From UHGV virus genome UHGV-1315295: 37,798 bases of DNA, one strand, 5' to 3'. The notes under the pieces are model-generated. The model ran no database searches. It saw only the letters and a program-made list of their open reading frames with translations, and was not told the DNA's origin. Each line of letters starts with the position of its first letter. The first letter of the stretch is position 1. Of the stretch, positions 1,349 to 33,404 are shown in pieces. Position numbers and translations under genes: made by a program. This stretch comes from a virus.

Positions 1349-1362
1349 GGGAACTTACAATT

Positions 1363-6299: not shown

Positions 6300-6308
6300 T
6301 AACACTAT

Positions 6309-6946: not shown

Positions 6947-6949
6947 GGG

Positions 6950-8005: not shown

Positions 8006-8048
8006 TCCAAATGTCTCTTTTTATTCGACGGCTTGGGTGCCTTTACTG

Positions 8049-8168
8049 ATTACAGTGGATAGTAGCACCCATCACAGTGGTTATCCTACCGCCTACAGCG
8101 GTTTTTCTACTCTCCATAGTGGTTGATTTACTCTCTATAGTGGTTGTTATTCTCACTATAGTGGATAT
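8049..8168. repeat. Iteron cluster 1 upstream of repA (origin/incC-like), 6 copies
   Basis: ACAGTGGATAG, CACAGTGGTTAT, CTACAGCGGTTTT, CTCCATAGTGGTTG, CTCTATAGTGGTTG, CACTATAGTGGATA; same family as the downstream iterons. Confidence 0.75.
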
Positions 8169-8214
8169 CGATAACCTCTAAAGCCATGTGGCACAACGGT
8201 TTGCAGGGGCCGGG

Positions 8215-8273
8215 GATCTCTTTGGGTCTTTGTGGTTCTCTTTGGTTCTAACAGGGATCTGAATTACTGGATC
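8215..8273. promoter_or_regulatory. GATC cluster 1 (3 Dam sites) adjacent to iteron cluster 1
   Basis: GATC at 8215, 8256, 8270 within GGGATCTC / GGGATCTG / GGATCGAG heptamer-like units. Confidence 0.4.
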
Positions 8274-8446
8274 GAGCCTGTGTATAAAAATCAGATAATT
8301 ACAAAATCAGGCATCACTCCCCTTCTGGGGATAATGTGTGATCGAAATAAACACGCCGCAACGCAAAATTTACAATATTTCCAAGAATATCAGCCATCTG
8401 CCGCAGAAAAACAGGCTCGGAGTTATCCAGTTAAAACATTGTCTCC

Positions 8447-8551
8447 TACTCACTACAGTGGATACCGACTACTCTCCAGAGAGGTTGTTTTGCTCTTCAT
8501 AGCGGTTATTATGCTCTCTACAGTGGTTATTTTGCTCCCTATAGTGGATAG
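8447..8551. repeat. Iteron cluster 2 (5 copies), a second origin-like module
   Basis: TACTCACTACAGTGGATA, CTCTTCATAGCGGTTAT, CTCTCTACAGTGGTTAT, CTCCCTATAGTGGATAG plus one degenerate copy. Confidence 0.7.
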
Positions 8552-8590
8552 TAACCCCTTCTCAAGCCAGTAACCGCAAGCGCTGGAGAC

Positions 8591-8648
8591 GATCGGGGAT
8601 CTCTTTTGATCTTCTGTAGGATCTCTCTGGGGATCTAAATATTGGATC
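8591..8648. promoter_or_regulatory. GATC cluster 2: six GATC sites in 58 bp
   Basis: GATC at 8591, 8598, 8608, 8620, 8632, 8645; the flank resembles the 8205-8280 segment (duplicated module). Confidence 0.5.
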
Positions 8649-8747
8649 GGACCTGTGAATAAAGTGAATAAGTAAACAGGCATTTGCAAACTCCGGTGCG
8701 CCTTATCCGTTATCGTTGCCCCGGACAAAATTATTTGAACAAGAATT

Positions 8748-9392
8748 ATGGATCTTAAACGCACGCGCTGGGTTCGCCGTCTTGAAGATGGCTCCTACAC
8801 CATTGAATCAAACACTAGTCTGAACAAACTGAAGTTGCTCTGCGACCTTTGCGGCATTGCTTCGAAATGCCCGATTAACGAAACCCGGCTTAAACTCCAC
8901 GACGCCGGTGCGCATTTCCACCTAAACAGCTGCATACGTTACGTGCCACTACTAGCATTTCGTAAACCGATCATCGGATTGGATGCTCCCTACTTCAACA
9001 CACTGCGCTCTGGTGTCACTTGGCGAGATCGTGTCGAACCTGGCAAACTCGTTTGTCTGGTTGAAGCTGATACCGGAAATATCATCCGGTTCGGGAGAGT
9101 TGATAAGGTCTACTCAGGCCCGGTGGATGAAATGCTGCGGAAACACAGCCGATTTAACCATCTCTGCATGGGCGGAGAGAAGATTGAGAAGGTTGGCGAA
9201 GTAATTCGCAAATCTTACGGACACTTTCTGAATGATAACAGCCTTCTGACAGCCATTTACATTCGCCATGTCGATCGGGAGTTCGACACGGAGTATCACA
9301 GTGTTGAAGAGTTGAATCTTGTAGACCCTCGTCCAAAAGCTGGGGTAATAGACATCAGCAGAGCGCGTCAGAAGCCCTCAGAGACGTTTTAA
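8748..9392 (+). CDS. Hypothetical protein (214 aa)
   Basis: ORF track; first gene after the origin-like region. Confidence 0.5.
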   Translation: MDLKRTRWVRRLEDGSYTIESNTSLNKLKLLCDLCGIASKCPINETRLKLHDAGAHFHLNSCIRYVPLLAFRKPIIGLDAPYFNTLRSGVTWRDRVEPGKLVCLVEADTGNIIRFGRVDKVYSGPVDEMLRKHSRFNHLCMGGEKIEKVGEVIRKSYGHFLNDNSLLTAIYIRHVDREFDTEYHSVEELNLVDPRPKAGVIDISRARQKPSETF

Positions 9393-9788
9393 AGGCAAAC
9401 TCATGCTTTTTACCGGGCATAAAATATGGTGTCTTAGAAAGACACTGAGAGCTTTAGGGATTAATGCATGAGTGAATTTTATTCAAGAGCAGAAACTGTG
9501 GCCGACGGATGCGTTTGAAGACGACGCACGCAAACGCCGTAGATGTCATCTCACAACTTCACCGTCCGTTCTCCTTTTTCATTTCTTGTCATCAGTAAAT
9601 GACTGCTCTCATAAAATTGCTTGTGACGTTTAGAAATCGTTGCTGCCCTATCTGATAGGTATTTACTTACTTATTTTTTTGTCATTATCATGTGCCTTTA
9701 TATTCTTTTGTGTTCCGTGTTGTCTGGGTTGTATGCCTCTTATGCACGCTTAGAATTTGTATCAAAATAACCACAAAGGAAAAGACAC

Positions 9789-10874
9789 ATGACATTGCCA
9801 TACGGGGTAATATCAGATCCCCATTATCATCGTTGGGATGCTTTTGCGACAACAAACGCTGACGGGCTTAACTCTCGGCTGGAGATCCAACTGGACGCTA
9901 CGAAGGAGGCGGCCAAAGCGATGAAAGCTGCTGGCTGTAAGCACATGCTGGTAGCTGGTGATACCTTCCATGTTCGCGGTGCTATATCACCTTCCGTTCT
10001 GCATTTCGTGACCGAAACTTACGAGTGGATCATCAAAGAGTTGGGTCTCAAGGTGGTAATGCTGGCTGGCAACCACGACCTCGAAACCAACAATTCCGTA
10101 TACAGCGCCAATGCAGCAGCCTCTCTGCGCTCAATCGGTGTGGAAATCGTCTGCGGCAAACGTCCTCATTCCATCAAAATGGGCGACGTAACCGTCCATC
10201 TGATTAGCTGGCGTAATAACCACGCAGAACTTATCAGCGATCTCAAAACGCTGCGTTCCGGGCTGGATGGTGACAACCATGATGTTGTTGTACATACCTC
10301 AATCAACAAAGCGATCCCCACCATGCCCGATGTCGGCATCGACGCACAGGAACTGAAAGATATCGGCTTCCGTTTATTGTTGTCCGGGCACTACCACAAC
10401 CACAAAGAAGTGCTGCCTGGAGTGGTAAGTATCGGGGCGCTGACACACCAGAATTGGGGGGATGTTGGTTCACTGGCCGGCTTCATGATCGTCAAACCGG
10501 ACGGCTCATTCACTCACCACGAAACCTCGGCACCTAAATTCGTGAACCTTGAGGACGATGTAGATGACGATCAGATTCGCGGCAACTACGTGCGCTTCCG
10601 TGCCGTTGTTGAGAGCGATGAAGAAGGCATCAAACTTCAGAACGTCCTGAAAACAATGGGCGCGAAGGGTGTCGTCTGCAACTTCATTCGCAAGGCATCG
10701 ATGATGGAAGGCGCTGCCAGTACTGCGGAAACCAGCAAAATTGACAGCCTGGGCGAGTCCGTTGCGGCGTACTGCAAGATCGTTCACGACACTGACGGTG
10801 GCTTCGACCTGAGCAAGCTGGACATACTGTGTCAGGAGATCTTGACCGAAGCAGAGAGTGCGGAGGCTGTGTGA
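9789..10874 (+). CDS. sbcD: SbcD/Mre11-family metallophosphoesterase nuclease
   Basis: Motifs DPHYH, GDTFH, GNHD, GHYH typical of calcineurin-like phosphoesterase nucleases; immediately upstream of an SbcC/Rad50-like ATPase. Confidence 0.75.
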   Translation: MTLPYGVISDPHYHRWDAFATTNADGLNSRLEIQLDATKEAAKAMKAAGCKHMLVAGDTFHVRGAISPSVLHFVTETYEWIIKELGLKVVMLAGNHDLETNNSVYSANAAASLRSIGVEIVCGKRPHSIKMGDVTVHLISWRNNHAELISDLKTLRSGLDGDNHDVVVHTSINKAIPTMPDVGIDAQELKDIGFRLLLSGHYHNHKEVLPGVVSIGALTHQNWGDVGSLAGFMIVKPDGSFTHHETSAPKFVNLEDDVDDDQIRGNYVRFRAVVESDEEGIKLQNVLKTMGAKGVVCNFIRKASMMEGAASTAETSKIDSLGESVAAYCKIVHDTDGGFDLSKLDILCQEILTEAESAEAV

Positions 10875-14508: not shown

Positions 14509-15074
14509 AAAAAGTAATCAAAGTTGCAGGTCTCGATCCATCTCTGTCAAATTTTGGCGTTGCCATCGGAGAAATAGAACTGGATTCAGGTGCATTGCAG
14601 GTCAATAAGTTGCATCTCATTGAGACGAAAGCTGGTGATACGAAAAAGCAAGTTCGCGTTAACAGTGACGATATGCGGCGGTTGAACGAGATTTGGCGTG
14701 GTATTAAGCCACTGATTGACCAAGTTCATTTAGTGTTCTGTGAACTGCCAGTAGGCAGTCAATCTGCTAGAGCGATGGTTTCTTATGGTGGTTGTCTTGG
14801 CGTACTGGCGTGTGTGGATAAGCCACTGATACAGGTCACGCCAAACGAGATTAAGTACTATGTCGGGAATAAGCTGACTACGTCGAAAGAAGAGATCATT
14901 CAGTGGGCTACGCAGAAGCAGCCAAACGCCCCGTGGTTGCGCCGGAAGCAATCGGGCAAGGAAGTGCTGGTGAATAAAAACGAGCACCTTGCGGACGCTG
15001 TCGCATCGATTTACACCGGTATGCAAACTGATCAATTCCGTCAGGTTCGCGATGTTCTTGCTGGAATTTTATAA
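14505..15074 (+). CDS. RuvC-like Holliday junction resolvase (putative)
   Basis: N-terminal GLDPSLSNFGVAIG and C-terminal EHLADAVA resemble the RuvC/YqgF-fold acidic catalytic motifs; start overlaps the HNH stop. Confidence 0.45.
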   Translation: MKKVIKVAGLDPSLSNFGVAIGEIELDSGALQVNKLHLIETKAGDTKKQVRVNSDDMRRLNEIWRGIKPLIDQVHLVFCELPVGSQSARAMVSYGGCLGVLACVDKPLIQVTPNEIKYYVGNKLTTSKEEIIQWATQKQPNAPWLRRKQSGKEVLVNKNEHLADAVASIYTGMQTDQFRQVRDVLAGIL

Positions 15075-15112
15075 GTTGATAATTGATAGGTAAGTGCTTA
15101 TCTATTACCATG

Positions 15113-15138
15113 AGGCCACTATATATAGTGGTCTTTTT
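15113..15138 (+). terminator. Rho-independent terminator
   Basis: AGGCCACTAT-atat-ATAGTGGTCT hairpin followed by TTTTT. Confidence 0.55.
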
Positions 15139-15339
15139 AATTGGGCTACACATAATAAGCATCGTAAAACGTAACGCCCACCGAGCCGCTGCCAGCTGCA
15201 TGAAGCGCTGACAAAGTTCGCTGTCGATTGCACTGGCCCGAGCCAGTTCGAATACCTCTAAGCCGAGTTTAACCACTTTGTGGCCTGGCGCTGCTGGGTC
15301 AAAATTGGCGTATCAAAAGAAGTCTAAAGGAAAGAAAAC

Positions 15340-16218
15340 ATGAAATTTACGAAACTGACCGATCATCTGAAACTTGCCGCAGACAAACTCGTGGGGTTTA
15401 AACCAGAGCCTTACGAGTTGAATCCCGGTTTCGGCAAGACAACGGAAAGCATCTACCTGATGGTTGACCAGTTCCACACACTGTTTCAGCACCCACGCCG
15501 TGCCATTCCAGATCCGGCATTACTGCGTCTGCGTGCCAAGCTGATCCACGAAGAAGCAGTTACCGAGGGCATCCCGGCAGCCAAAAATGGGGATATGACG
15601 GCACTGCTGGACGCGATGGCTGACTTCCTTTACGTGGGCGTCGGCACAATGGTGGCCATCAAAGGCGGCATCTCGACGGGCATGAGTTACTACACCCAAG
15701 AGCAGAGTGTTGATCGCTTCATCCACACCATCATGGTTCCGGGCAACACGGTCTTTGACGATATGGCTATCCCGTTTGAAGAAGCAAAAGAAGCTGCATT
15801 AATGCTGAATGCGCTGGCTGACAAACTTGAAGCGAAGCCGATAAGCGATTCCGAATTGGTGCAGGAGCTGCGCCGCGTGATGAACAAAATCTACGTTGCC
15901 TGCATGATGACCTACCGTCTGGCTGATTTTCTCGGAATCGATATTGTTGAGCTGGTGGCAGAAATCCACCGTTCCAACATGACCAAGCTGTGGCCGGCTG
16001 ACGCCGAAGAGCGTCGTGTGGCGGTAGAGAATTGCAAATATGACAAGGAAGACCTGGGCTTCCGCCATGCTGAAGGGACTGACATGATGATCGGTTTCAG
16101 GGTTTCTGATGGCAAGATCCTCAAATCTCCCACCTACAGCGATGTGGATCTGACTTGCTTTGTTGAGAAGGCGAAGTCCTCATCTCTTTACGAGATGGTA
16201 AAAAATAATTGTAAGTGA
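15340..16218 (+). CDS. MazG-like nucleoside triphosphate pyrophosphohydrolase (putative)
   Basis: HEEAVTEG...LLDAMADFLYVGVG resembles the MazG/HisE EExxE...D motif; a second related half follows; nucleotide-metabolism context. Confidence 0.4.
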   Translation: MKFTKLTDHLKLAADKLVGFKPEPYELNPGFGKTTESIYLMVDQFHTLFQHPRRAIPDPALLRLRAKLIHEEAVTEGIPAAKNGDMTALLDAMADFLYVGVGTMVAIKGGISTGMSYYTQEQSVDRFIHTIMVPGNTVFDDMAIPFEEAKEAALMLNALADKLEAKPISDSELVQELRRVMNKIYVACMMTYRLADFLGIDIVELVAEIHRSNMTKLWPADAEERRVAVENCKYDKEDLGFRHAEGTDMMIGFRVSDGKILKSPTYSDVDLTCFVEKAKSSSLYEMVKNNCK

Positions 16219-16280
16219 GTACTTATCATTATATATTGCCTTGGCGTGTTTTATTGTCCAAGTTCTTAATTGCTCATTGC

Positions 16281-16310
16281 AATGGTGGCCGAAGAGCCAC
16301 CATTTTTTTT
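16281..16310 (+). terminator. Rho-independent terminator
   Basis: AATGGTGGC-cgaagag-GCCACCATT followed by TTTTTTTT. Confidence 0.65.
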
Positions 16311-16385
16311 ACTCCCCTCCTAGCCTTACACACTTCTGACAGATAAACTTGTATAAAATAATAGGTATGTAATTACTTATCTTGT

Positions 16386-17501
16386 GTGAGGTTGATTTTG
16401 TCTATCCTACTGAATCGAGACTTTACGAACGGTCAGTTTGCCAGTGGTTCGTATGCCAAAGTGGTTGAAACGGTGCTCAACACTGGCGTTCACGCGGGTG
16501 ATCGCACCGGAACCGGCACAAAAAGTGTTTCATATGTCCCTTCCTACTACATGCTGACGGGCGGATCTGTTCCACTTATCTCCGGAAAAGCCGTCAATCT
16601 GAAGCCGTTACTGGTTGAGCTGGAGTGGTATCTCAAAGGAACAGGCAACATCCAGTTCCTGAAAGACAATGGCGTCAAAATCTGGGATGTCTGGGCCGAT
16701 GAAAATGGCGATTTAGGCCCGGTCTATGGCAAGCAATGGCGTCGGTGGGAAGACACTCGCATCGTGAGCCATAGCGAGTATCTGCGCAAAATCGACACGT
16801 TCCGTGAGCGCGGGTACAAGGTCGAGGGGTATCTGGGCGTAAGTGAAGATCGCGTTGTGTTGTCCCGTGAAATTGACCAGCTACAGCGTATCGTTGACAC
16901 GCTTCGCACCAACCCTACAGATCGTCGCATCCTGCTGAATGCCTGGAATGTTGGCGAACTGGAAGATATGAAGCTGCCGCCATGCCATTTCGTGTTTTCA
17001 CTGTGGAGTCGCGAGCTGGACTTTGAGACCCGACTGACTATGGCCACCGACATTGGCATACAGCACAACCGCCACGGCCACGAGTCCATTTACACCCAGA
17101 TGCTGTGTCTTCTGGAAAGAGATGGCGGCATTACTGAGAACATGCTGGACGAGCTGGGCATCCCGAAACGCATTCTGAACTCATGCCTGGTTCAACGCAG
17201 TGTCGATACCTTTGTTGGTATGCCGTTCAACATCGCCGGTTACGGCATTCTCACCCACTTCCTCGCGAAGATCACCGGCCACATGGCTGGCGCATTCGTG
17301 CATTTTGGCTTTGACGTTCATCTCTACGACAACCACATGGAAGGCGTTGAGGAACTGATGAAGCGCGAGCCGCCCAAAGAGTCCGACCCGGTTGTCATCT
17401 TCCCGCATGAATGGGCCGAACTGGACGACTTCAAATGGGAAGGTGTGCAGGTGTGCGGCTACAGCCCTCTTCCGTGGATCAAGGTTCCAGTGGCGGTGTG
17501 A
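16386..17501 (+). CDS. thyA: Thymidylate synthase (ThyA) with internal insertions
   Basis: DRTGTGT, IWDVWADENGDLGPVYGKQWR, LPPCH, GMPFNIAGYGILTH and C-terminal IKVPVAV blocks; 371 aa, longer than bacterial ThyA; true start uncertain (GTG 16386 or TTG 16398). Confidence 0.85.
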   Translation: MRLILSILLNRDFTNGQFASGSYAKVVETVLNTGVHAGDRTGTGTKSVSYVPSYYMLTGGSVPLISGKAVNLKPLLVELEWYLKGTGNIQFLKDNGVKIWDVWADENGDLGPVYGKQWRRWEDTRIVSHSEYLRKIDTFRERGYKVEGYLGVSEDRVVLSREIDQLQRIVDTLRTNPTDRRILLNAWNVGELEDMKLPPCHFVFSLWSRELDFETRLTMATDIGIQHNRHGHESIYTQMLCLLERDGGITENMLDELGIPKRILNSCLVQRSVDTFVGMPFNIAGYGILTHFLAKITGHMAGAFVHFGFDVHLYDNHMEGVEELMKREPPKESDPVVIFPHEWAELDDFKWEGVQVCGYSPLPWIKVPVAV

Positions 17502-17503
17502 TA

Positions 17504-17916
17504 TGGCCAGAGGGATGTATGTGTTGTGTGAAATTGAAGGTGTGCTGGCGAGAGCCAGCCATCGCAAAGCAGTGCCTGATGCGGATGCAGGCGCTCTTAT
17601 TGCCGGTGATGAACTCATCTTTCCCACCAGCCGCATGTTGCGTGGTTTTGCTCGCTCCGGTGCTGAAGTGGTGCTTATCAGTAGTCGTCCGGAAGCGCTC
17701 GAAGGCCCAACCAAGCGCTGGCTGAAGGACTTCGGCATTGATTATGACTGGCTCCACCTGGTTCCGCGCGGTGTCAGTTTTGAAACCCATATCAAGCGCA
17801 CGCTGGCAGAGCACAAAGGCGACTTACTTATCGCCGCACTGGTTCATGATCCGCGTCTGCGTTCTGCGCTGGCAGATTCTCACCAGCGACCAACCATCTA
17901 TGAGGTAAGCCAATGA
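17504..17916 (+). CDS. HAD-like hydrolase, putative nucleotidase, with non-canonical first motif
   Basis: YVLCEIEGVL (ExExGVL in place of DxDxT), VVLISSRPE, K...GDLLIAALVHD resemble HAD motifs I-IV; ATG 3 nt after the thyA stop. Confidence 0.35.
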
Positions 17917-18389
17917 AGATGATTGCAGCTGTCGGCCGCAACTATGAAATCGGCATTGGCAACGAACTTCCCTGGCGTTGCCCGACCGATCTGAAACTGT
18001 TCAAACAACTCACCAAAAACGCCACTGTCGTGATGGGACGTAAGACGATGGAAAGTCTTAAACGCCCGCTGCCAGAGCGCCATAACCTCGTTTTGACGCG
18101 CTCTCGTGGCTATATCCCCAATGGTTTCTACCCCGCTGGCATCGATGACGTTTTAAAACTACCAGATCCGGTCTGGGTGATTGGTGGCGGACAGATTTAC
18201 TCGCTCTTTATGCCACACGTTGAAGAGATCTGGCTGTCGCATATTGGCGTGGATGTGTCGGGCGCGGATGCGTTCTTCCCGGCGCCAATGATGCGTTCTT
18301 TAGGGTTCGTACCAGTAGAAACGGCTTATACCCAACGTGCAAATGAGGATGAGCCTGGCTTTTTGCAGATCGTATACAGAAGGTCGTAA
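17913..18389 (+). CDS. folA: Dihydrofolate reductase
   Basis: MKMIAAVGRNYEIGIGNELPWR...VVMGRKTMESLKRPLPERHNLVLTR...VIGGGQIY matches the DHFR fold signature; ATGA overlap with the upstream gene. Confidence 0.85.
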   Translation: MKMIAAVGRNYEIGIGNELPWRCPTDLKLFKQLTKNATVVMGRKTMESLKRPLPERHNLVLTRSRGYIPNGFYPAGIDDVLKLPDPVWVIGGGQIYSLFMPHVEEIWLSHIGVDVSGADAFFPAPMMRSLGFVPVETAYTQRANEDEPGFLQIVYRRS

Positions 18390-19060
18390 TGGATTACCGG
18401 ATTGGAATCACTGGCGCACAGGGCAGTGGGAAAACAACCCTGGCAAGGTACATCGATGCGCACTATGGCATTCCGTATGTGGATGCTGGTGTAGGCAAGC
18501 TGATGAGCAGTCTGGGGGTGAAGGTTGGCGAGCGTTTGCCCCTTTACGAGCGTCTTCAGGTTCAGATGGAGATTGCCAGACACATCGAGATGATCACCCG
18601 CGGCGTTGAAGGTTTTGTCATCGACCGCACGCCAGCCGATGTCATGGCTTATACGCTTGACCTGGTCGGCCAGACCAACGAAGACCGCTGCATCGAGCTG
18701 GCTCTCGACATTGAGCAGTTTTGCCACAAAGCGGCCATTTCCAACTTTAATGCTATAGCGGGTCTTCGCCCGGGCGTTGAGCTTTCCAGCAAAGATCTCG
18801 CGCGTCCCCAGCGAGGATCGCTTGACCGTCTCTATGTTGCTCGCATCGATGCACTTATGTGTGGCGAGCTGACGAAAATTAGCGCCCTTCCCCATACCGG
18901 CGATTTGCAGGTTTTCATTATCTCTGAAAAGTGCCGCACGGTTGAGGCGCGAGCCAGATCGGTATTGCGTGTGCTGGAAAGAGCCACTGAAAACATCGAG
19001 AGCCGTATAACAGGACGAGTGACCTTCCACAGAATGTTGTTCCCCTGTTGGGCAGTGTGA
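18389..19060 (+). CDS. P-loop NTPase, putative nucleoside/nucleotide kinase
   Basis: Walker A ITGAQGSGKTTLA at the N-terminus; TAATG overlap with folA; nucleotide-metabolism operon context. Confidence 0.5.
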   Translation: MDYRIGITGAQGSGKTTLARYIDAHYGIPYVDAGVGKLMSSLGVKVGERLPLYERLQVQMEIARHIEMITRGVEGFVIDRTPADVMAYTLDLVGQTNEDRCIELALDIEQFCHKAAISNFNAIAGLRPGVELSSKDLARPQRGSLDRLYVARIDALMCGELTKISALPHTGDLQVFIISEKCRTVEARARSVLRVLERATENIESRITGRVTFHRMLFPCWAV

Positions 19061-19096
19061 CAATAAGACACGCGAAATGAATTGAGGAAAAACAGA

Positions 19097-19516
19097 ATGA
19101 TAGATGAACTTCCCCTGTCGGATGAATTAGATCGCAAAGCGATTGAAGCACTGATCCGTATTGCTGACGAACAATCCCGTTCCTTAATGAGTGAACGTGA
19201 AGCACGTCTGGCTATCCGAGCAGTGTTTGAGTCCGTTCAAGGTCTTGTTGGGGAAGAGGTTGGTGAAGCCATTAATGCGGCGATGTCGCAATTCAATGGC
19301 GGCACCAAGCGCTCTCTGTTTCCTATGCATCTCAAACTCTTGGGCGGTACGGTTTTGTATGTGTCCGTTTGCCTGGAGACTAACCAAATCCAGCTCCTCA
19401 ACACGTCAACGGGCGAATGGCGTGAGCCGGTCGTCTGCGAAAGCGGCGAGGACGCACTAAAAAAGGCTGCTCAGTTTGTGCGTGGCGCACTGCTGAAAGG
19501 CGCGAAGAAGCTGTAA
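19097..19516 (+). CDS. Hypothetical protein (139 aa)
   Basis: ATG 19097 with GAGGA RBS 8 nt upstream, in frame with the track ORF. Confidence 0.45.
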   Translation: MIDELPLSDELDRKAIEALIRIADEQSRSLMSEREARLAIRAVFESVQGLVGEEVGEAINAAMSQFNGGTKRSLFPMHLKLLGGTVLYVSVCLETNQIQLLNTSTGEWREPVVCESGEDALKKAAQFVRGALLKGAKKL

Positions 19517-19525
19517 GGAGTACCA

Positions 19526-20080
19526 ATGACCACGATTATCGGTGGCGTCGATATTGAGTCCACGGGGCTGGACTTCACATCCGGCCACAAAATTATCGAA
19601 ATCGCGATATCTCGTTATGAACTGGAAACCCAGAAGCGCATTGACAGCCTTGAGATGCGCTTCAACCCGCGTCGTAGCATCGATCCGAAGGCGCAGGCTG
19701 TACATGGTATCTCTCTGGAAGAACTGGCTGCTGAACCGCTGTTGGCTGATCACGCAGGTAAGATTGCTGCATATATGGGGGCATGTAGCGCGTTAGTCGC
19801 CCATAACGGGGAGGCTTTTGACCTTCCGTTCATTCGCCACGAGTTCGGAAGCTATGGAGTGAAATTGCCAGAAATCCCTCTGGTTGACACTCTATTTTCC
19901 CTGTGGGCTACCGAGGATGGGAAGCGCCCACGCCTGGAAGAGCTGGCATTCTCACTTGGGTTCACTTACGACCGTGAGAAAGCCCACAGTGCTCTCTACG
20001 ATACTGATCTGATGATGCAGTGTTTCTTCAAAGCCCGAGAGAAATACGGCTTCTTCAAACTCCCATTCGAAAGCGCCTGA
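19526..20080 (+). CDS. DnaQ-like 3'-5' exonuclease (DEDDh family)
   Basis: Exo I GVDIESTGL, Exo II AHNGEAFDLPF, Exo III HSALYDTD. Confidence 0.75.
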   Translation: MTTIIGGVDIESTGLDFTSGHKIIEIAISRYELETQKRIDSLEMRFNPRRSIDPKAQAVHGISLEELAAEPLLADHAGKIAAYMGACSALVAHNGEAFDLPFIRHEFGSYGVKLPEIPLVDTLFSLWATEDGKRPRLEELAFSLGFTYDREKAHSALYDTDLMMQCFFKAREKYGFFKLPFESA

Positions 20081-20208
20081 TGGCGCTTTTTCTTTGCCTC
20101 CAGTTCCTTTAACTGCCTGTAGTTATGACTTTTCTGCCTGATAGGTTTTGCCAGAATAAGCTCAACCAAAACGCGGAAATGCACCAACGAAAACATAAGG
20201 AGTTAAAA

Positions 20209-21081
20209 ATGAGCGCAGTTTCAAACATTGTTAAAAACGATGACCTGGATGAATTGACTGCAATGCTGCAATCTCTCGAAGAACCGGTTCAGAAAGCTGC
20301 GAAAATGAGCGGTGTCGACGAGATCGACGATCTTCTTTCTGGTCTGGATGATGCAATCGCAAAACCAGTCGAGGCGGTAGCAGATGAAGTCATGAATGTC
20401 AGCTCTACCGGCGATCTGAGTGGCGTTCTGGAAGAGCTTGAGATTGCACACGAATCGGTGAAGGTCGAGGAGCCAGAGCGTGGCCCTATTGCGGAGATAG
20501 TGGACGAGCCAACACCTGAACTTGATGCTCGAAGCGCTGAGACCACCGATATAGCTCCAACGCTTTTACCTTCAGTGGAGTCTGGGCCTAAACCTGAAGA
20601 AGAGCAGCCAAAACACCAGAAGGCACAATCAAAGCGTGCGCCGACCAAACCTCGCTTCACGCTGGAGGGTAAGGATGAATCGTTCTATGTGACAGCCGGT
20701 CTGGATAGTGAGCGCTTTACTGCCGCATTTGAAGGCGCGCCGGTCAAAGCGAAAGACAAAATCTTAAACCTCCTGAACTGGTTTAGTGGTGGCCCGGAAA
20801 TCAGCGTCTACACGGTAATCGCAATGCGCCATATTCTTGATACGAACACGGCGACCAGCAATAGCATTAAACTGGCGCTAATGAGCTACCCGGAGAAACC
20901 ATATCCACTTAACACGGCTTCGACTCAGGCTGGCCAGATGATGGCTGTGTTTCCGGCCACAGGCATTGCCACCAGAGAAGGTGGAAATCTAACGCTTAAT
21001 AAAGAGTCGCCGATCGTCAAAAAATTCATAGCGGAGTATTCCATTGAACAATGTTCCTCTGCACGATCTAAAGCACCCTGA
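20209..21081 (+). CDS. Hypothetical protein with strongly acidic N-terminal half
   Basis: ATG 20209 with AAGGAG RBS; N-terminal ~170 aa rich in D/E. Confidence 0.5.
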   Translation: MSAVSNIVKNDDLDELTAMLQSLEEPVQKAAKMSGVDEIDDLLSGLDDAIAKPVEAVADEVMNVSSTGDLSGVLEELEIAHESVKVEEPERGPIAEIVDEPTPELDARSAETTDIAPTLLPSVESGPKPEEEQPKHQKAQSKRAPTKPRFTLEGKDESFYVTAGLDSERFTAAFEGAPVKAKDKILNLLNWFSGGPEISVYTVIAMRHILDTNTATSNSIKLALMSYPEKPYPLNTASTQAGQMMAVFPATGIATREGGNLTLNKESPIVKKFIAEYSIEQCSSARSKAP

Positions 21082-21127
21082 GAGCTTTAGGACGCTGGGT
21101 AAGCTAATTGCATACCCAGCATCGATA

Positions 21128-21180
21128 AAACGCGCCAGAGAGCTTCCCGTTTGCGAATCTGGCGCGTTCTTCTTTGTTTG
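21128..21180 (+). terminator. Hairpin terminator-like element with large loop
   Basis: AACGCGCCAGA ... TCTGGCGCGTT (11-bp perfect stem, 19-nt loop) followed by a T-rich tract. Confidence 0.35.
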
Positions 21181-21204
21181 CTATCCGTTGGATTAAATGA
21201 AAAA

Positions 21205-21224
21205 ATAGGTAAGTATTTACCTAT
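21205..21224. promoter_or_regulatory. Palindrome ATAGGTAAGTATTTACCTAT (family 1) 12 nt upstream of the Dam-like gene start
   Basis: Near-perfect 20-bp palindrome; one of about 10 family members. Confidence 0.4.
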
Positions 21225-21236
21225 CAGAGTAAAGTA

Positions 21237-21830
21237 ATGATCGCAGCCGAAAAAATCAAAAAGCGAGAGCGTGATGCCTCTCTTCGCGACCTTTGGCGAA
21301 CACCGCAGTGGTTGTTTGTCGCCATCCAACGTTACATAGGCGTAAAGTTCGATGTGGACGTCGCCTGCAACAAAGATAATGCTCTCCTGCTGAACTTTAT
21401 CGGTGTTGAGCGTGATGCGCTCAAGTGCAGTTGGGGAGAACCTGGCACTGTGGCGTTCCTTAACCCGCCCTACTCCAAAATCACCCCCTGGATAGACGCA
21501 GCCATTCGCGAGCAGGCGCGTGGAGTGACGACGGTCATGCTGATACCACAATCCCTCGATACGCAGTGGTACGAGCGTGCGGCTGAATGCGCCAACGAAA
21601 CCGTCATCTTGTCTGGCGGCCGCGTGGCGTTCGTTGAGCCGGATGTTGAACTTGGGCTGGTGGAGGTGAACATCAACCCTGGTGGCAGCATGTTGCTTAT
21701 CTTCCGTGGCTACTGTCAGGAAGCTGGGCACACCATCAGCAAGATACCGCTGGCGGTGATGAAAAAGCTGGGTGGTTATGACCCTGCCAATGTTGTCAGG
21801 AAGAAGAGACCACGTAAAAAGGCAGCGTAA
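21237..21830 (+). CDS. Phage-type N6-adenine DNA methyltransferase (Dam-like)
   Basis: LWRTPQWLF...VDVACNKDNA...AFLNPPYS (NPPY catalytic motif); layout typical of phage Dam-type methyltransferases. Confidence 0.75.
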   Translation: MIAAEKIKKRERDASLRDLWRTPQWLFVAIQRYIGVKFDVDVACNKDNALLLNFIGVERDALKCSWGEPGTVAFLNPPYSKITPWIDAAIREQARGVTTVMLIPQSLDTQWYERAAECANETVILSGGRVAFVEPDVELGLVEVNINPGGSMLLIFRGYCQEAGHTISKIPLAVMKKLGGYDPANVVRKKRPRKKAA

Positions 21831-22032
21831 ACACCAGTCTGGGAGTTAGTTTGAGAACCTGCTTCCGTATATATAAATAACTAAGTACTAATTATTAATA
21901 TATACAGACGCAGGCTTTTTAAGACGTGATTTCCAAACAACTCCCAGACCGTTTTACACCTCCAGAACCCACTGGAGTCCCTCTCCAGACGCTCTAGAAT
22001 CGATTTTATGAACCACAGTAAGGAAAACTATC

Positions 22033-22263
22033 ATGGTATACCCGACGAACGTCGTAGCGCTCGTTGAGAGCGATTTTCTGGCCACAGTGCGCGACATGAT
22101 GAAAGATCGCGATAAGGCTTTCAGTCTCTACGAATGGTCGCTCAAATGTCTTCATTCAGGCGAGCACAAAGAGCTGGTGGAGCAGCTGTTAGGGGAACTC
22201 ATCAATGAGGTGTTTGCCCTGAACGTCCAGCTTCATGGGCGAGAAATTAATCAATCAATATAA
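22033..22263 (+). CDS. Hypothetical small protein (76 aa)
   Basis: ATG 22033 with AAGGA RBS. Confidence 0.45.
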   Translation: MVYPTNVVALVESDFLATVRDMMKDRDKAFSLYEWSLKCLHSGEHKELVEQLLGELINEVFALNVQLHGREINQSI

Positions 22264-22280
22264 TAGGTAAGTACTTACCA

Positions 22281-22309
22281 TTCAAAACGCCACTAACCAG
22301 TGATACAAT
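22281..22309 (+). promoter_or_regulatory. Candidate sigma70 promoter with extended -10: TTCAAA - 17 bp - TGaTACAAT
   Basis: -35 TTCAAA 22281-22286, TG 22301-22302, -10 TACAAT 22304-22309; reads into a 540-bp region with no credible ORF. Confidence 0.45.
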
Positions 22310-22856
22310 CTATCCGCTTCCGGATACTTTCGGCAGCTCGACCTGATGGGTGGGGGATAGCGTCACTGGCGTCAGGTTTAAAAAAGCTCACTACCAGCGT
22401 AGAACCGGCACCGTTTAGGGGTTGGGGAAGGGGGAACCAAAGTGGGCAGAGAGAAGGGTCACTTTATGATTGTCGAGTCTGGAGTGTTTCGAGAGGTTGA
22501 ATCCAGTACTCCCCTTCATAAAGTGTGGGAAGATCTCGGTTCTGGGGTGCTGTCATCCATAACTTCCCAAGCCTAAGCTGGCAGTAGACTTAGGTCATAA
22601 CTTTTCAGGTTATGAAACGACCAGGTTGGTGAGGAAATTTTGTACTCACCTCCCTGGGAGAGTATTACCTGAAAAGACAACCTCTCACTTCGTTCGAGGT
22701 GAACTTCACTCACTTCGTTCGTTCAGTTCAGGTTTTATTAAAACCTGTTCTGGGAAGTAATTTTTCTTTTCTAAAAAATTTTTAATATTTACACGCACGC
22801 GTGCGCACACGCGCGAGGGAAAAAAAATCGTCGCGGCGCACGATTCTGGAGCCAAA

Positions 22857-23465
22857 ATGACGACCAAGAACCCAGTCCGGCAACGCACTGGCTGCCGCAC
22901 GAAGTCTAAAGCCAGATGCCAAACCCACCAGCATTCCCGTACCAATTTCAACACACCCGTAGTCGAGTTCAATCCCCAGCTCAAAACCGTAAAAGTATTC
23001 AGTGATGGCTCCTGCCTCAAAAATCCGGGCGGGCCGGGCGGTTACGGCATCGTTCTCCAGTATCGAGGCGAAGAGCGCGAGCTTTCTGAGGGCTTCCACA
23101 GCACGACCAACAATCGGATGGAGATGATGGGCGCCCTGATTGCGCTGGAGCGTCTGAAGTACCCCTGCAACGTGATCCTGCATTCCGACAGCCAGTATCT
23201 TAAAAACGGCATGACGCTCTGGATGAAAGGCTGGAAGCGTAACGGATGGATCACGTCTGAGAAGAAGCCAGTCAAAAACGTGGATCTCTGGAAACGTCTC
23301 GACGCGGCCGCCAGTCGTCATAATGTCCGCTGGAAGTGGGTTAAAGGCCATGCAGGTCATCGCGAGAACGAAATGTGTGACCGTCTGGCGAAGATCGCCG
23401 CCTATTCCGCAGCTGATATGCCTCACAAGCATGATATTGGGTTTTTGTCACAAAAAGATAAGTAA
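22857..23465 (+). CDS. rnhA: Ribonuclease HI with a ~45-aa basic N-terminal extension
   Basis: [20 protein letters not shown]...[16 protein letters not shown]...HSDSQY...[20 protein letters not shown] matches RNase HI throughout; GGAG RBS before ATG 22857. Confidence 0.8.
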
Positions 23466-23607
23466 GTATTTACCTACTATAATAAATCAGGTATCTTATA
23501 AATCGTCAGGATGACGAAGTACCGGTTAGGTACGGTTCCAGGATGGAACGCCAAAAGGCGGCTGGCCAAGCCAGCCGCAACTCTTTCTGACACTGAATGG
23601 AATCCAC

Positions 23608-28487: not shown

Positions 28488-28723
28488 ATGATCTGCTTGT
28501 CGAGCGAGTCTCCGCTTTTGTTAAGTCCCCGCTGAATAATCCCCTCACCCGCGGTGAGCAGATGGAACTGGCAAGGTGGTTTCTGCGTATCCATGAGCAG
28601 ATGGAAGTTTTTAAACAGTTGCCGGATCTGCCCATTACAGACGGCCAAATTCAGTGTGCCACTTCAGTACGGTCGACGATGACAACGACGCAAACCTGCT
28701 TTTCGTCAAATCCGAAATCATAA
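28484..28723 (+). CDS. Hypothetical small protein (79 aa); possibly the 5' part of a frameshifted gene
   Basis: ATGA overlap with the upstream stop; C-terminal residues look like out-of-frame read-through. Confidence 0.3.
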   Translation: MNDLLVERVSAFVKSPLNNPLTRGEQMELARWFLRIHEQMEVFKQLPDLPITDGQIQCATSVRSTMTTTQTCFSSNPKS

Positions 28724-28769
28724 AGTTGCGCAGGGAGAGAGAGAAATCGACGCAGAGCAGGCCCGCAAT

Positions 28770-28985
28770 ATGTGGGACGAGGCAGAAAACGCTGATGACG
28801 TAAAAGAAAGTTGCTGCTGTTTCGGTGTCGGTAACGAACTGCTGAGTCTGTTTGGTGACGATCCGTGGTATGCCGGTTGGCCAACGGTGCCAAACCCCAG
28901 ATACCAATACCTGGAACGTATTATGTACGCGGTACGTGATGGGCTGAAAGAGCTTCACAATCAGATGAGAGAAGCAATCGGTTAA
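28770..28985 (+). CDS. Hypothetical small protein (71 aa); possibly the 3' part of a frameshifted gene
   Basis: ORF track; its frame is open from 28683 without an ATG. Confidence 0.3.
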   Translation: MWDEAENADDVKESCCCFGVGNELLSLFGDDPWYAGWPTVPNPRYQYLERIMYAVRDGLKELHNQMREAIG

Positions 28986-29023
28986 GTGCTATAGTCAGGC
29001 GCTTTTATATTTATGGAGTGAAT

Positions 29024-29722
29024 ATGAAAAATATCCTACTGGCATCATTGTTGGTGGCATCGCCGGCTGTATTTGCAGCCAGCTTTGACTGCCAAAAGGC
29101 TTCGGCAGAAATCGAACACAAAATCTGCGATAACGAACGCCTGTCAAAATTAGACGAACAACTTAGCTCTACCTATTCCAACGCACTCAAAGCAAACCCG
29201 GGGGACGCAGACGCCTTAAAGACGGTTCAGCGTCAATGGGTAAGTATGCGTGGAAAACTCACTGGTGATAAGGCTCTGGAGCTGGCTTATCTAATCCAAA
29301 TTAATGGCCTCAAGAGTTTGGATGGTTCGGCCAGCACTGCGGTGGTCAATGAGACACCAAAGCCTGTGCAGAAACAGCCTGAAGTTCAGGAAAAGACAAG
29401 CAAGGCAGACACAAAGCAGGCTGAGAGCGGTAAAAAGCTAACTCTGGAGTCATTCCGAGCTAAGTATATTGAAGTTGACGGTGAATACTACAGCACGACA
29501 TCCCTTCCCAGAGGGAGTTCGTTCTTGTTCACCTGCGCAAGTCGTATCGCAGATGACCAGGTGAATATTTGGAAGAAGGTGGCAGCCAAAGAGGGCAAGA
29601 TCGATCTCTTCTTTGAACTTGAGAATCGAATACATACCGCAATGCTGAATGCCAATTTTCAGAAGCTAAATAGTGATTTAACTAAAACAGGCATTTGCGA
29701 TCTGATTACTGCTGTTCCGTAA
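29024..29722 (+). CDS. Secreted protein with LprI/DUF1311-like N-terminal domain
   Basis: Signal peptide MKNILLASLLVASPAVFA; FDCQKASAEIEHKICDNERLSKLDEQLSSTY resembles the DUF1311 (lysozyme-inhibitor LprI-like) signature. Confidence 0.55.
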   Translation: MKNILLASLLVASPAVFAASFDCQKASAEIEHKICDNERLSKLDEQLSSTYSNALKANPGDADALKTVQRQWVSMRGKLTGDKALELAYLIQINGLKSLDGSASTAVVNETPKPVQKQPEVQEKTSKADTKQAESGKKLTLESFRAKYIEVDGEYYSTTSLPRGSSFLFTCASRIADDQVNIWKKVAAKEGKIDLFFELENRIHTAMLNANFQKLNSDLTKTGICDLITAVP

Positions 29723-30167
29723 GCCAGATAAGGCCACTATTTGTGGCCTTAAACAATTTGTTTAATTAGTGGTGTAATTATTGGAATCCCAGGCGAACTA
29801 AATCCATTGGGCAGAACAGATCTTCCACACCTTCGATAGACACGCAGTCAGAGCGGCGTAATTGTTCTTCTGATTTGCCTTCCCCACTGATTTCTCTGAT
29901 TACTCCCGTTGCGCCATTCATTGCCACCATGACATGGCTGCCGATAGTGATAGCATTACGGTTTCGATCATACGTCTTTATCGTTTTCTCCTTTCACATG
30001 GGGCAAATCAGGTTTCAAAAATTGCCGTTTTCCATGTATATGCGATTTGCAAAATATCAATTTCCTAAACAAATTGTTTTCACCAGCTAGTTATTACACA
30101 CAGGCGAAGTTGACCGCGCTTCATATAAATATCACTGTTTATACATACAGTGTATAAGAGGAAAAAA

Positions 30168-30434
30168 ATGGGCGGAAAAGACTCAAGCTATCAGATCGTT
30201 TACAGAGGTGAGACGCTCGAAAACTTTAAACCGGGGCAGTATGTCTTCTTTCAACGAGCGAAGGAGTATGGCGGCGGATATTGGTTGGGCAGGACTCATG
30301 AAGATGGGTTCGAGTTTTTGCTGGAGGAGCCAACCTCGCTGGGAAGAGGTTTTGAGTTTCTGATAACTCACTCGAGCGTGGAGGCCAGATTTATGGAGTT
30401 CGTCGACGATGCGGACGACTTCAAACTCACCTAA
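30168..30434 (+). CDS. Hypothetical small protein (88 aa)
   Basis: ATG 30168 in frame with the track ORF; purine-rich RBS. Confidence 0.45.
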   Translation: MGGKDSSYQIVYRGETLENFKPGQYVFFQRAKEYGGGYWLGRTHEDGFEFLLEEPTSLGRGFEFLITHSSVEARFMEFVDDADDFKLT

Positions 30435-30519
30435 TCATCCCTTAAACATCTTGTTTTCTGCCTTTTGTTATTTGAGATAATAACAACAATTAGAAAACAA
30501 GTTGTTTAAGGAATCATCC

Positions 30520-30756
30520 ATGTTTGGAACCGCAAAAGAGCTTATCGAAAAGCTGGAGAACTACCCAGAAGACGAGCCGCTGCTGATGGTTGTGTGGCAT
30601 AAGGAAGACGTAGGCGAAGTACGCCCAGACCTTACTGACTATCAGTGCGCCCAGGTCTTGCGCAGAATCAAAGAGTGTCATGATGCCAATATCGGCGTGA
30701 ATTGGGACGTTATCTCTGACACGGCCGACATCCTGTTTCCGAAGGAGAAGGCATGA
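30520..30756 (+). CDS. Hypothetical small acidic protein (78 aa)
   Basis: ATG 30520 with AAGGA RBS immediately after the palindrome at 30493-30509. Confidence 0.45.
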   Translation: MFGTAKELIEKLENYPEDEPLLMVVWHKEDVGEVRPDLTDYQCAQVLRRIKECHDANIGVNWDVISDTADILFPKEKA

Positions 30757-31073
30757 TGCTGATATTGAAAGAATCCTATAAGACCGCAGTGATCAGCACC
30801 GCCCATGTCACGGCCAAAGACTCCGAGCTGCTGCCTGTCGTGTGCTTTGACCCGTTGACCGATCGCGGGTTGAATTGGGTACATGGTACACAGTACGGCT
30901 GGATTGTTCGTGCTGGAATGCGAGGGAATGACTGGAAAGAAGAGCTGCGTGAGTATGGCATTTCCGAAGAGACGATCTCCAACATACAGACCATAGTGGA
31001 TGCCGGGTATGATTCGGTACAATTTGACTGTGATGCGGAGCTGGTGGATGGGATGCCAGCATGGGATTGGTAG
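30753..31073 (+). CDS. Hypothetical protein (106 aa)
   Basis: ATGA overlap with the upstream gene. Confidence 0.45.
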   Translation: MMLILKESYKTAVISTAHVTAKDSELLPVVCFDPLTDRGLNWVHGTQYGWIVRAGMRGNDWKEELREYGISEETISNIQTIVDAGYDSVQFDCDAELVDGMPAWDW

Positions 31074-31088
31074 ATATAGCTACTAGCA

Positions 31089-31715
31089 ATGGCGGGAATA
31101 ATTACCTGGAAAGTTGATATCATATACCCGCTTGTATTTCAAAATGGAATGGATGTAATGGAAATCGATACTTTAGAAAAAAAATCAGTTAAAAACCTCT
31201 ACGCGTGGCTTATAGCAATACTGCCGTTTGTTGTCAGCGTCCCCCCTGCTGAGTACGACAATTACGTTATGGTGATTTCGCTCGTCATTGGGCTTGGACT
31301 GCTGGTCGCCGATCGCATGAATTTGACTGAGGCAGGCTATGAGCCACCATCATTCTTATGTGGGTTCTTTATCCCCCCTGTGTATCTCTGGAAACGAGCG
31401 ACGGTTCTTGGAAGTAACCGACTGCTGTTTATCGTATGGATTGTTGCCTTTGCTGCATCATTTTTCGTGTATAGCTTCAACACAGATTCAGCGCTTGAAG
31501 AAGCTGCTTGTCCTATAGTTACCACTATTCTGAAAGAAAATAACGGTTCAGAAGCATCTAAATGCATGAAGGTAACAATTCAGGACAAAGTGACGGACAA
31601 GTTCTACAAAGCCACGGCTACACTGGATAACGGTAATGACATTAACATCACTATCGAAATTATCGGTGACGAGAATTTCTACGTTCGCGTGCCTAATTAC
31701 TACCTAAACGACTAA
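31089..31715 (+). CDS. Hypothetical membrane protein (2-3 predicted TM segments)
   Basis: Hydrophobic segments LYAWLIAILPFVVSV, VMVISLVIGLGLLV, LLFIVWIVAFAASFFVY; start ambiguous (31089, 31149 or 31158). Confidence 0.45.
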   Translation: MAGIITWKVDIIYPLVFQNGMDVMEIDTLEKKSVKNLYAWLIAILPFVVSVPPAEYDNYVMVISLVIGLGLLVADRMNLTEAGYEPPSFLCGFFIPPVYLWKRATVLGSNRLLFIVWIVAFAASFFVYSFNTDSALEEAACPIVTTILKENNGSEASKCMKVTIQDKVTDKFYKATATLDNGNDINITIEIIGDENFYVRVPNYYLND

Positions 31716-32850: not shown

Positions 32851-33185
32851 CTTCGGGAGTGCGCCTTGCTCTTCGCTCGCCTGAAAATCGCGAGGGAGTG
32901 TCGTTCCCTCTCGTGCAGCTGCTGAACTCCATTCTGCCAGACCATCCTCGGGTCTCAAGCGATTTCAGTAGGTTTTCGGGGAGAAGAAAATTCTGCCCAC
33001 CAGCCCTGCGGCGCGCGTAGAGCAGAATATCGTAAATACTGGTTCCCGTGTCGTTCCCGGATACTCACTACCCAGCCTGGCTTTCCCGACATAAAATCCT
33101 TTTTCGCCTTTGTCTTATTGCGATAATAACACCAACAAGTAAACAACATGTTTAGACGTTATATAAACGAAGTGAGGATGAAGAG

Positions 33186-33404
33186 ATGATTAAGATGCCT
33201 GTGACGGTTGAGGTGTGGGGCGTGGATTCCCTGGCTGAGTGTCTGAATGCAGTAGGGCCGGAGTTGTACCGCAAGTTGTGGTCGTTCGTCCCGGCAGAAG
33301 GGGAATCGCCCAAAGGGAAGGATATCTGGCACCTGCTGAGTGAAGATGAAAAGCGGGAGCTGGTGGGCGCGGTACACAGCGAGTTCCCGGACGACGAAGA
33401 TTAA
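33186..33404 (+). CDS. Hypothetical small acidic protein (72 aa)
   Basis: ATG 33186 with GAGGATGAAGAG RBS region. Confidence 0.45.
   Translation: MIKMPVTVEVWGVDSLAECLNAVGPELYRKLWSFVPAEGESPKGKDIWHLLSEDEKRELVGAVHSEFPDDED

Follow-up and report, generated by a model that had tools for sequence, protein, structure and literature searches.

A probable gene for a large structured non-coding RNA in the core of SSU5/pHCM2-type phage-plasmids

This work concerns a locus of about 590 base pairs (bp) in UHGV virus genome UHGV-1315295, a stretch of 37,798 nucleotides (nt) that is called the window here. The locus sits between a conserved open reading frame (ORF) of 76 amino acids (aa; 22033–22263) and rnhA (22857–23465). 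We propose, with a probability of roughly 60%, that it holds an autonomous gene for a structured non-coding RNA (ncRNA) of ~455 nt, read from the + strand (~22316 to ~22772). The RNA would be made while the element is a plasmid prophage, and its end would lie ahead of rnhA. Such a gene would belong to the core of the SSU5/pHCM2-type phage-plasmids, and we class it as a new RNA family within the structured ncRNAs encoded by prophages and plasmids. A first-pass annotation of the window, made from its letters alone, had favored an RNA-primed origin of the ColE1, T4, or T7 type at this locus and had offered a trans-acting ncRNA or a regulatory leader as alternatives. The results presented below support its description of a promoter-driven, structured, G-rich non-coding transcript, along with the alternative it named, and leave the origin unsupported.

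Conservation of the locus was examined in an alignment of 61 distinct relatives over 22000–23500. The block 22339–22760 has a site diversity of 0.057, 78% invariant columns, and no 3-base periodicity. In the same alignment, the diversities of rnhA at codon positions 1, 2, and 3 are 0.052, 0.034, and 0.38; the block is as slow-evolving as the first and second codon positions of this gene, and both flanking genes show the expected wobble pattern. The flanks of the block vary like synonymous sites (0.34 for 22264–22338 and 0.26 for 22761–22856), and 22510–22720 is a particularly invariant stretch. Every indel within the block is 1 or 2 nt long, and in relatives these indels frameshift all of its 30–66-aa ORFs on both strands. 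The initial impression that the interval lacks a credible ORF is borne out for the frames in 22300–22760, each of which is broken in this way. Given the low diversity, the lack of periodicity, and the frameshifting indels, the block is non-coding, and purifying selection acts on almost all of its positions.

Two public records place ORFs over the RNA. The RefSeq record of Salmonella phage SSU5 contains a 5′-extended RNase H model of 254 aa (SSU5_090, L001:6902–7666), and the public record of Cyrano contains a 44-aa hypothetical protein (CYRAN_81, L002:3574–3708). Neither frame is conserved, and both the SSU5_090 extension and CYRAN_81 were rejected as genuine genes; the open frame upstream of the rnhA ATG ranges from 21 to 95 codons among relatives. 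Coding potential was likewise rejected for the block as a whole, its frames being non-conserved and frameshifted, and no overlooked conserved protein-coding frame was found among the relatives. These annotations, the extreme invariance of 22510–22720, and the internal repeats and palindromes could speak for a small protein gene that has been missed, or for a DNA-level element that is transcribed incidentally; packaging, the binding of proteins to an array of sites, and recombination are conceivable roles for the latter. We regard both ideas as very improbable. The unconserved, frameshifted ORFs and the variable in-frame stretch before rnhA argue against a protein gene. As for a DNA-level element, the limits of the conserved stretch match the positions of a promoter and a hairpin, and public phage records are not consistently linearized at the locus.

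The features of the locus and of the adjoining gene are as follows.

22263–22280, no strand assigned: operator-like palindrome TAGGTAAGTACTTACC, directly upstream of the −35 element; one of 8 copies of TAGGTAAGTAYTTACCTA, all intergenic.
22281–22309, + strand: sigma-70 promoter with −35 TTCAAA, a 17-bp spacer, and extended −10 TGaTACAAT (9/12 consensus matches).
22316–22338, + strand: predicted 5′-terminal hairpin P1, variable in sequence and conserved in structure.
22339–22560, + strand: G-rich 5′ domain; diversity 0.063, 75% invariant columns.
22340–22378, + strand: hairpin P2, with three pairs that change on both sides (AU/GC in 11 sequences, CG/UA in 14, AU/GC in 10).
22405–22425, + strand: hairpin P3, whose pairs switch among GU, GC, and AU.
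22460–22469 with 22516–22525, + strand: helix with one covarying pair (158:220, CG to UA).
22561–22760, + strand: nearly invariant 3′ domain; diversity 0.049, 81% invariant columns.
22562–22569 (ACUUCCCA) with 22751–22758 (UGGGAAGU), + strand: possible closing helix of the 3′ domain, invariant.
22571–22595, + strand: hairpin (helix 11), CG to UA in 13 sequences plus GU/GC/AU switches.
22602–22614 with 22663–22675, and 22621–22633 with 22645–22657, + strand: nested helices of the consensus fold.
22684–22696 and 22709–22721, + strand: direct repeats CTCACTTCGTTCG, 13 nt, invariant, flanking the octamer CGAGGTGA.
22691–22721, + strand: hairpin (helix 15), invariant.
22729–22747, + strand: hairpin (helix 16), with three covarying pairs.
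22751–22775, + strand: probable 3′ end, consisting of UGGGAAGU, which supplies the 3′ side of the closing helix, and then AAUUUUUCUUUUCU.
22776–22856, + strand: spacer and 5′ region of rnhA; diversity 0.26.
22857–23465, + strand: rnhA, encoding RNase HI (PF00075, E = 6.9e-46); the ATG at 22857 is kept in 61/61 relatives.

The near-consensus promoter with an extended −10 that the first-pass annotation had placed at 22281–22309 is present. A promoter scan by itself performs at chance level (3 promoter-like sites versus 2.1 expected); the call is validated by an architecture that is kept across clades. In all of them, −35 TTyAnA and TGnTAnnAT are separated by a spacer of exactly 17 bp whose sequence varies freely, and the −10 takes the form TACAAT, TAAAAT, TAAGAT, or TAGAAT. 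From the position of the −10, the transcript is predicted to start at ~22316. Hairpin P1 follows ~7–10 nt past the predicted start in each clade, with stems of unrelated sequence (GCTTCCG/CGGCAGC, TCCAGTC/GACTGGA, GCTGGCAGA/TCTGCCAGC, GATTTCGA/TCGAAATC, and GCTTCCGGA/TCCGGAAGC), a pattern that we read as the signature of a 5′-terminal stabilizing stem-loop of an RNA.

Upstream of the promoter, the left half-site of the operator-like palindrome, (G/A)(G/A)TAAGTA, is retained in all clades. The 18-bp palindrome TAGGTAAGTAYTTACCTA occurs at 8 sites in the window (5232, 9659, 16365, 21209, 22267, 23462, 27739, and 34413), which give 15 strand-matches compared with 0.31 expected. The sites lie between genes, just before + strand genes and at variable distance to their ribosome-binding sites; the copy at 22267 directly adjoins the −35 element that serves the RNA, and the stop codon of rnhA falls within a further copy. 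The palindrome probably serves as an operator to which a phage regulator binds, or else as an RNA hairpin signal.

Folding of the single sequence beats shuffled controls on both strands (z about −3.2). The consensus fold reaches −132.7 kcal/mol on the + strand versus −99.4 kcal/mol on the − strand, covarying pairs are commoner on the + strand, and one-sided pair changes mostly go via G-U in the + orientation. Covariation was quantified for a curated consensus of 120 pairs over 57 distinct sequences, with 500 shuffles and slid alignments as controls. The cells of this fold are paired in 99.2% of cases. Nine pairs show changes on both sides, amounting to 70 cells compared with 17.2 ± 3.1 in the shuffles, none of which (0/500) reaches 70, and these cell counts overstate the number of independent events because the sequences are closely related by shared ancestry. 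The covariation score is 0.070, compared with 0.050 in the shuffles (0/500 reach the observed value) and at most 0.031 in the slid controls; four to five helices are informative in this respect. The compensatory changes and the one-sided changes compatible with G-U fit an RNA of the + strand rather than duplex DNA, and they argue against the DNA-level element considered above.

Three consecutive stem-loops had been anticipated in the 3′ half of the locus. The hairpin at 22571–22595 is supported by compensatory changes and that at 22621–22657 is part of the fold, whereas the one at 22595–22615 competes with the helix formed by 22602–22614 and 22663–22675. The direct repeats CTCACTTCGTTCG that had also been pointed out are found at 22684 and 22709. 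Pairing of the octamer CGAGGTGA with the second of these copies is predicted to leave the first one single-stranded.

Evidence for transcription comes from a relative. Misson et al. (2023; PMC9928086) re-analyzed RNA sequencing data for E. coli LF82 carrying Cyrano and listed CYRAN_81 as a ‘moron’, expressed 12-fold over local background in LB. CYRAN_81 maps to 22442–22576 of the window, within the conserved block. Expressed as log2(fpkm+5), where fpkm stands for fragments per kilobase per million, its level is 6.8–10.35 over five conditions with a peak in macrophages at 6 h (S1 Table of PMC9928086), and the values over the same five conditions are 3.1–5.8 for the upstream ORF CYRAN_80 and 2.6–5.0 for the RNase H gene CYRAN_82. 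In these data, the RNA locus stands 12–60 times above both neighbor genes in Cyrano lysogens. A difference of this size points to an abundant, discrete transcript with no comparable continuation into rnhA.

A probable 3′ end is found where the block ends. The U-rich tract lies 2–4 nt past the invariant TGGGAAGTAA in five of the six sequence groups, which were distinguished by eye, with the Klebsiella group as the exception, and the closing helix together with this tract would constitute a terminator, in the face of competing pairings. Taken as a gene of its own, the locus may work as follows. A sigma-70 promoter with an extended −10, just past the operator-like palindrome, would be active in the plasmid prophage while the neighboring genes are silent. 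The resulting transcript would comprise a protective 5′ hairpin that is free in sequence, a 5′ domain rich in G, a 3′ domain that hardly varies and has two copies of CUCACUUCGUUCG, and, most likely, a helix-plus-U-tract end that would insulate rnhA and the downstream lytic-phase genes from the constitutive promoter.

The same arrangement could also be a cis-acting leader or attenuator of rnhA and the genes that follow it. In that case, transcription from an always-on promoter would stop at the helix plus U-tract, and an alternative fold would allow read-through upon a signal such as a protein, a metabolite, or the lytic switch. This is the main rival to an autonomous ncRNA gene, and we consider it unlikely. 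In its favor, rnhA has no recognizable promoter or palindrome of its own within 22776–22856, and the combination of many leader reads with few gene reads is typical of attenuation. CUUCCCA (22563–22569) can pair with any of three G-rich segments, all invariant, two of which are the UGGGAAG copies at 22526 and 22751; this follows the classical logic of terminator and antiterminator. In two relatives, moreover, the insertion immediately downstream is JukAB, whose expression is needed in lysogens. However, a leader of ~450 nt that is more conserved than its enzyme would be unusual, Rfam yields no match to a known aptamer or leader family, and what the putative terminator helix encloses is no simple hairpin but a multi-branched domain of 190 nt. 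The alternative pairings lack covariation support because all of them are invariant. Finally, the RNA is unchanged where rnhA is destroyed.

This last point rests on L155 and L159, two 110-kb relatives from IMG/VR in which the 5′ half of rnhA has been swapped for a JukA/JukB defense pair while the RNA is intact. The cassette (PADLOC E = 6.2e-65 and 3.5e-12; no Pfam match) occupies L155:1046–2992, equivalent to 22875–23137 of the window and directly downstream of the RNA. Accessory genes may preferentially insert into this slot, behind a promoter that is active in lysogeny. We conclude that rnhA is a neighbor of the RNA and is not demonstrably part of the RNA gene.

The sequence that separates the two differs in character from the block. 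Its AT-rich tract (22760–22792) is variable and the most indel-rich part of the locus. An alternating purine-pyrimidine inverted repeat forms the palindrome 22794–22815, and a hairpin (22829–22845) precedes the ribosome-binding site GGAG at 22848. Between them, the A8 tract at 22821–22828 ranges from about A5 to A10 among otherwise near-identical relatives, a length polymorphism that suggests slippage. Read on the − strand, this A-tract and the hairpin 22829–22845 resemble an intrinsic terminator (hairpin plus T8). Within rnhA, an N-terminal extension of 42 aa (22857–22982) is basic and has a diversity of 0.24–0.37 at all codon positions, unlike the catalytic core.

The RNA gene appears to be restricted to a single lineage and widespread within it. 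The block was matched in 687 PLSDB plasmids, with coverage of at least 80% in 682 of them, from Klebsiella, Escherichia, Enterobacter, Salmonella, Citrobacter, and Cronobacter. It was found in 232 of 5426 complete E. coli genomes (~4%), nearly always on ~110-kb plasmids and unannotated throughout, and also in ~110-kb contigs from human-gut metagenomes. Host-gene mimicry was considered and dismissed, as all E. coli matches are plasmid copies of the same element. Pattern scans of IMG/VR and metagenomes and nhmmer searches revealed no divergent homologues outside the lineage, only SSU5-like contigs with near-full-length copies; the 30 other loci were chance matches without homology. A search of genome contigs with the RNase H protein gave chromosomal rnhA only and no relatives of the locus.

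Family searches pointed in the same direction. The covariance-model scan that had been proposed as a check was run with Rfam 15 and returned no family match: at gathering thresholds there were 0 matches over the whole window, and at E up to 10 the interval 21800–23000 gave microRNA noise only, on a neighboring AT-rich hairpin. Transfer RNA and transfer-messenger RNA searches were negative, and the RNA is not mentioned in the literature found by full-text search. The hairpin behind the spurious microRNA matches is a long imperfect one of ~125 nt between dam and the 76-aa ORF (21827–21957; minimum free energy −45.6 kcal/mol, z = −7.9). It combines an AT-rich palindromic core with CCTGC...GCAGG plus a T5 terminator and is kept in relatives.

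Large structured ncRNAs associated with phages and mobile elements offer one comparison. GOLLD, ROOL, HEARO/omega RNA, OLE, and raiA share with the present RNA a length above 400 nt, a multi-domain architecture, strong conservation, phage-borne occurrence, and a function that is not obvious from context. In contrast to them, the RNA described here has no Rfam covariance-model similarity, is confined to a single phage-plasmid lineage of Enterobacteriaceae, and has no associated nuclease or transposase gene.

With regard to its mode of action, nearly all nucleotides, paired and unpaired alike, are constrained and no complementary target was found in the element's genome. The RNA may therefore act as a folded RNA that is bound by protein, sequesters protein, or switches conformation, a mode of action distinct from simple antisense regulation and from replication priming. 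Antisense targets were sought as exact complements in ~128 kb of the element, made up of the window and the other 90 kb of a near-identical plasmid whose RNA copy is 100% identical to that of the window, and only chance-level 11–14-mers were obtained. One of these sites, AACGAAGTGAG (33166–33176; L164:38407–38419), overlaps the Shine-Dalgarno sequence of a 72-aa ORF (33186–33404) and is also present in SSU5; either copy of the invariant repeat CUCACUUCGUUCG could pair with it across 11 nt. Given that about four such matches are expected by chance, it is only a lead. The protein encoded just upstream of the RNA was considered as a Rop/Rom-like partner. This 76-aa protein is conserved (phrog_5343) and predicted to be helical (pLDDT 74.5); it has no PDB sequence match and no fold match to any solved structure, and a Rop/Rom-like fold is unsupported.

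The immunity RNAs of P1/P7 (c4), P4 (CI), and N15 (CB) are processed to ~70–80 nt, and the sites with which they pair lie close by, within one and the same operon. Like them, the present RNA would be made constitutively in the lysogen of a phage-plasmid, and its repeat-complement-repeat arrangement CUCACUUCG...CGAGGUGA...UCACUUCG superficially recalls seqA-seqB-seqC of P4. Unlike them, it has a conserved unit of ~420 nt, repeats only 25 nt apart, and no targets above chance. There is also no match here in Rfam, which includes a C4 family.

We turn now to the RNA-primed origin. In an R-loop model, a G-rich transcript would remain hybridized to the template strand, and after processing by RNase H it would prime the leading strand at the AT-rich tract or A-tract, most plausibly in the lytic phase. 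The components that had led to this proposal are there: the AT-rich tract (22760–22792), the palindrome (22794–22815), and a bona fide RNase HI adjacent to them. Promoter, ~450-nt structured RNA, AT-rich tract, polypurine A-tract, and RNase HI gene also follow one another in the order that such an origin would have, the 5′ domain has a strong positive GC skew (+0.33 to +0.51 across 22350–22550), and the element codes for its own replisome. Nevertheless, we give the model little credence, and it ranks third, behind the attenuator leader.

The location of the plasmid replicon is one reason. A Rep3-family RepA (6953–8005, − strand) in the interval 6305–8670 is flanked by at least 20 iterons CTCACTACAGTGGATA, located at 6305–6960 and 8046–8553 in opposite orientations on the two sides of repA. 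DnaA boxes are found at 8279 and 8654, and relatives type as IncFIB. This origin of RepA, iterons, and DnaA boxes is 14 kb from the RNA locus; the RNA region contains no DnaA boxes, and cumulative GC skew does not change at the locus. Deletion derivatives also speak against the model. L124 and L132, IMG/VR contigs of 19.7 and 38 kb, keep the repA region and have lost 15257–22915, including the RNA. They are mosaics of 7658–10065, 14602–15256, 22916–23406, and 28497–31510, and they are without dam, the genes for nucleotide metabolism, the RNA, and the two ends of rnhA.

The RNA itself does not behave as the model would have it. It is abundant in a lysogen whose lytic genes are silent, and its level drops before the AT-rich tract, which is the least conserved, indel-laden part of the locus, ~450 nt from the promoter and behind the terminator-like element. 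A simple consensus scan detected no RNA I-like antisense promoter, and the sole − strand site (22285 to 22257) points away. Both G-tracts that had been reported, GGGTGGGGG at 22348–22356 and GGGGTTGGGGAAGGGGG...GGG at 22418–22446, are present, and the first lies within a hairpin whose pairs vary compatibly; the G-quadruplex (G4) capacity assigned to them did not stand up to the G4 prediction that had been suggested as a check. The canonical motif (loops of at most 7) occurs in 0/57 variants, and a relaxed motif is kept in 25 and lost in 32 of the 57. An rnhA in cis is dispensable for retention of the RNA, as the JukA/JukB-bearing relatives indicate. Proximity to RNase H is thus not evidence for an RNA-primed origin.

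Comparison with known origins is consistent with this assessment. The oriF and oriG origins of T4 and the primary origin of T7 consist of a promoter plus a downstream unwinding element. The phage-plasmid resembles these phages in that it, too, combines a promoter with an AT-rich segment and encodes its own replisome. It differs in that ~450 nt, including a structured RNA and a terminator-like element, separate the promoter from the AT-rich segment, and in the poor conservation of that segment. RNA II of ColE1/pMB1 is, like the present RNA, promoter-driven, highly structured, G-rich, ~500 nt long, and plasmid-borne, with RNase H relevant to it and an A-tract downstream. Here, however, there is no Rfam RNAI match, no antisense promoter in the 5′ part, and no Rop-like fold support for the 76-aa protein; RepA and iterons are present, and the transcript seems to end short of the AT-rich tract. 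A precedent for RNA-based prophage origins is provided by cluster A mycobacteriophages, which have no repA and depend on an RNA next to parABS to maintain the prophage (Wetzel et al., 2020; PMC7157519). There, too, an extrachromosomal prophage expresses a ~400–500-nt ncRNA in the lysogen (PMC7157519). In the present case, RepA exists, the ParB-like genes are ~20 kb away (78–80 kb, with the RNA at 99.4 kb, in the record of a near-identical plasmid), and repA-bearing derivatives do without the RNA.

The near-identical complete plasmid, pCUVET18-789.1, and the sequence relationships of the locus place the window among the SSU5/pHCM2-type phage-plasmids. A sequence comparison of the 1.8 kb around the locus gave 96% identity to Salmonella phage SSU5 and ~80% to Klebsiella and Escherichia phage-plasmids such as Cyrano (pLF82). 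The window encodes, besides the Rep3-family RepA and RNase HI, nucleotide-metabolism genes, Dam, and an Ant/Rha-like gene. pCUVET18-789.1 also codes for DnaE, a primase, a DnaB-like helicase, a ligase, and a 5′-3′ exonuclease, and it further carries ParB-like proteins and a siphovirus morphogenesis module. On the basis of these gene contents and the identity to SSU5, the window is a phage-plasmid of the SSU5/pHCM2 type. An accessory type I restriction-modification module (R subunit, plus DUF4268; 185–4380) adjoins the replicon in the window, and its S and M subunits come next in pCUVET18-789.1.

Several observations weigh against an autonomous ncRNA gene as we have described it. The family is narrow (88–100% identity), which limits the power of covariation, and most helices are invariant and hence neither supported nor refuted by it. 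The single-sequence ensemble favors pairing with UGGGAAG at 22526 (~0.7) over the closing or terminator helix (~0.15), and members of the Klebsiella clade have only a poor U-tract. Both ends of the transcript are predicted, and PMC9928086 is silent on whether its read counts are strand-specific. As L124 and L132 lack the RNA, it is not needed for bare plasmid replication.

Phage-plasmids of the SSU5/pHCM2 type, which carry resistance and defense genes, are frequent among clinical E. coli, Klebsiella, Enterobacter, and Salmonella. Their most conserved non-protein element is unannotated, and spurious ORFs cover its locus in public records. In Cyrano, this locus is among the few that are transcribed in the lysogen, and in one data set it is strongly up in macrophages. 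Defining the RNA gives a correct annotation, a handle on the control of lysogeny, maintenance, and host interaction, and a new large RNA to study. More speculatively, and with a good deal less confidence than we attach to the gene itself, the RNA may represent a new class of large structured RNA that is core to the SSU5 phage-plasmid lifestyle, for example as an RNA-protein particle or as a conformational switch. Such an RNA could have a role in the decision between lysogeny and the lytic cycle, in immunity, or in host manipulation, through a mechanism unrelated to those of antisense immunity RNAs or primer RNAs.

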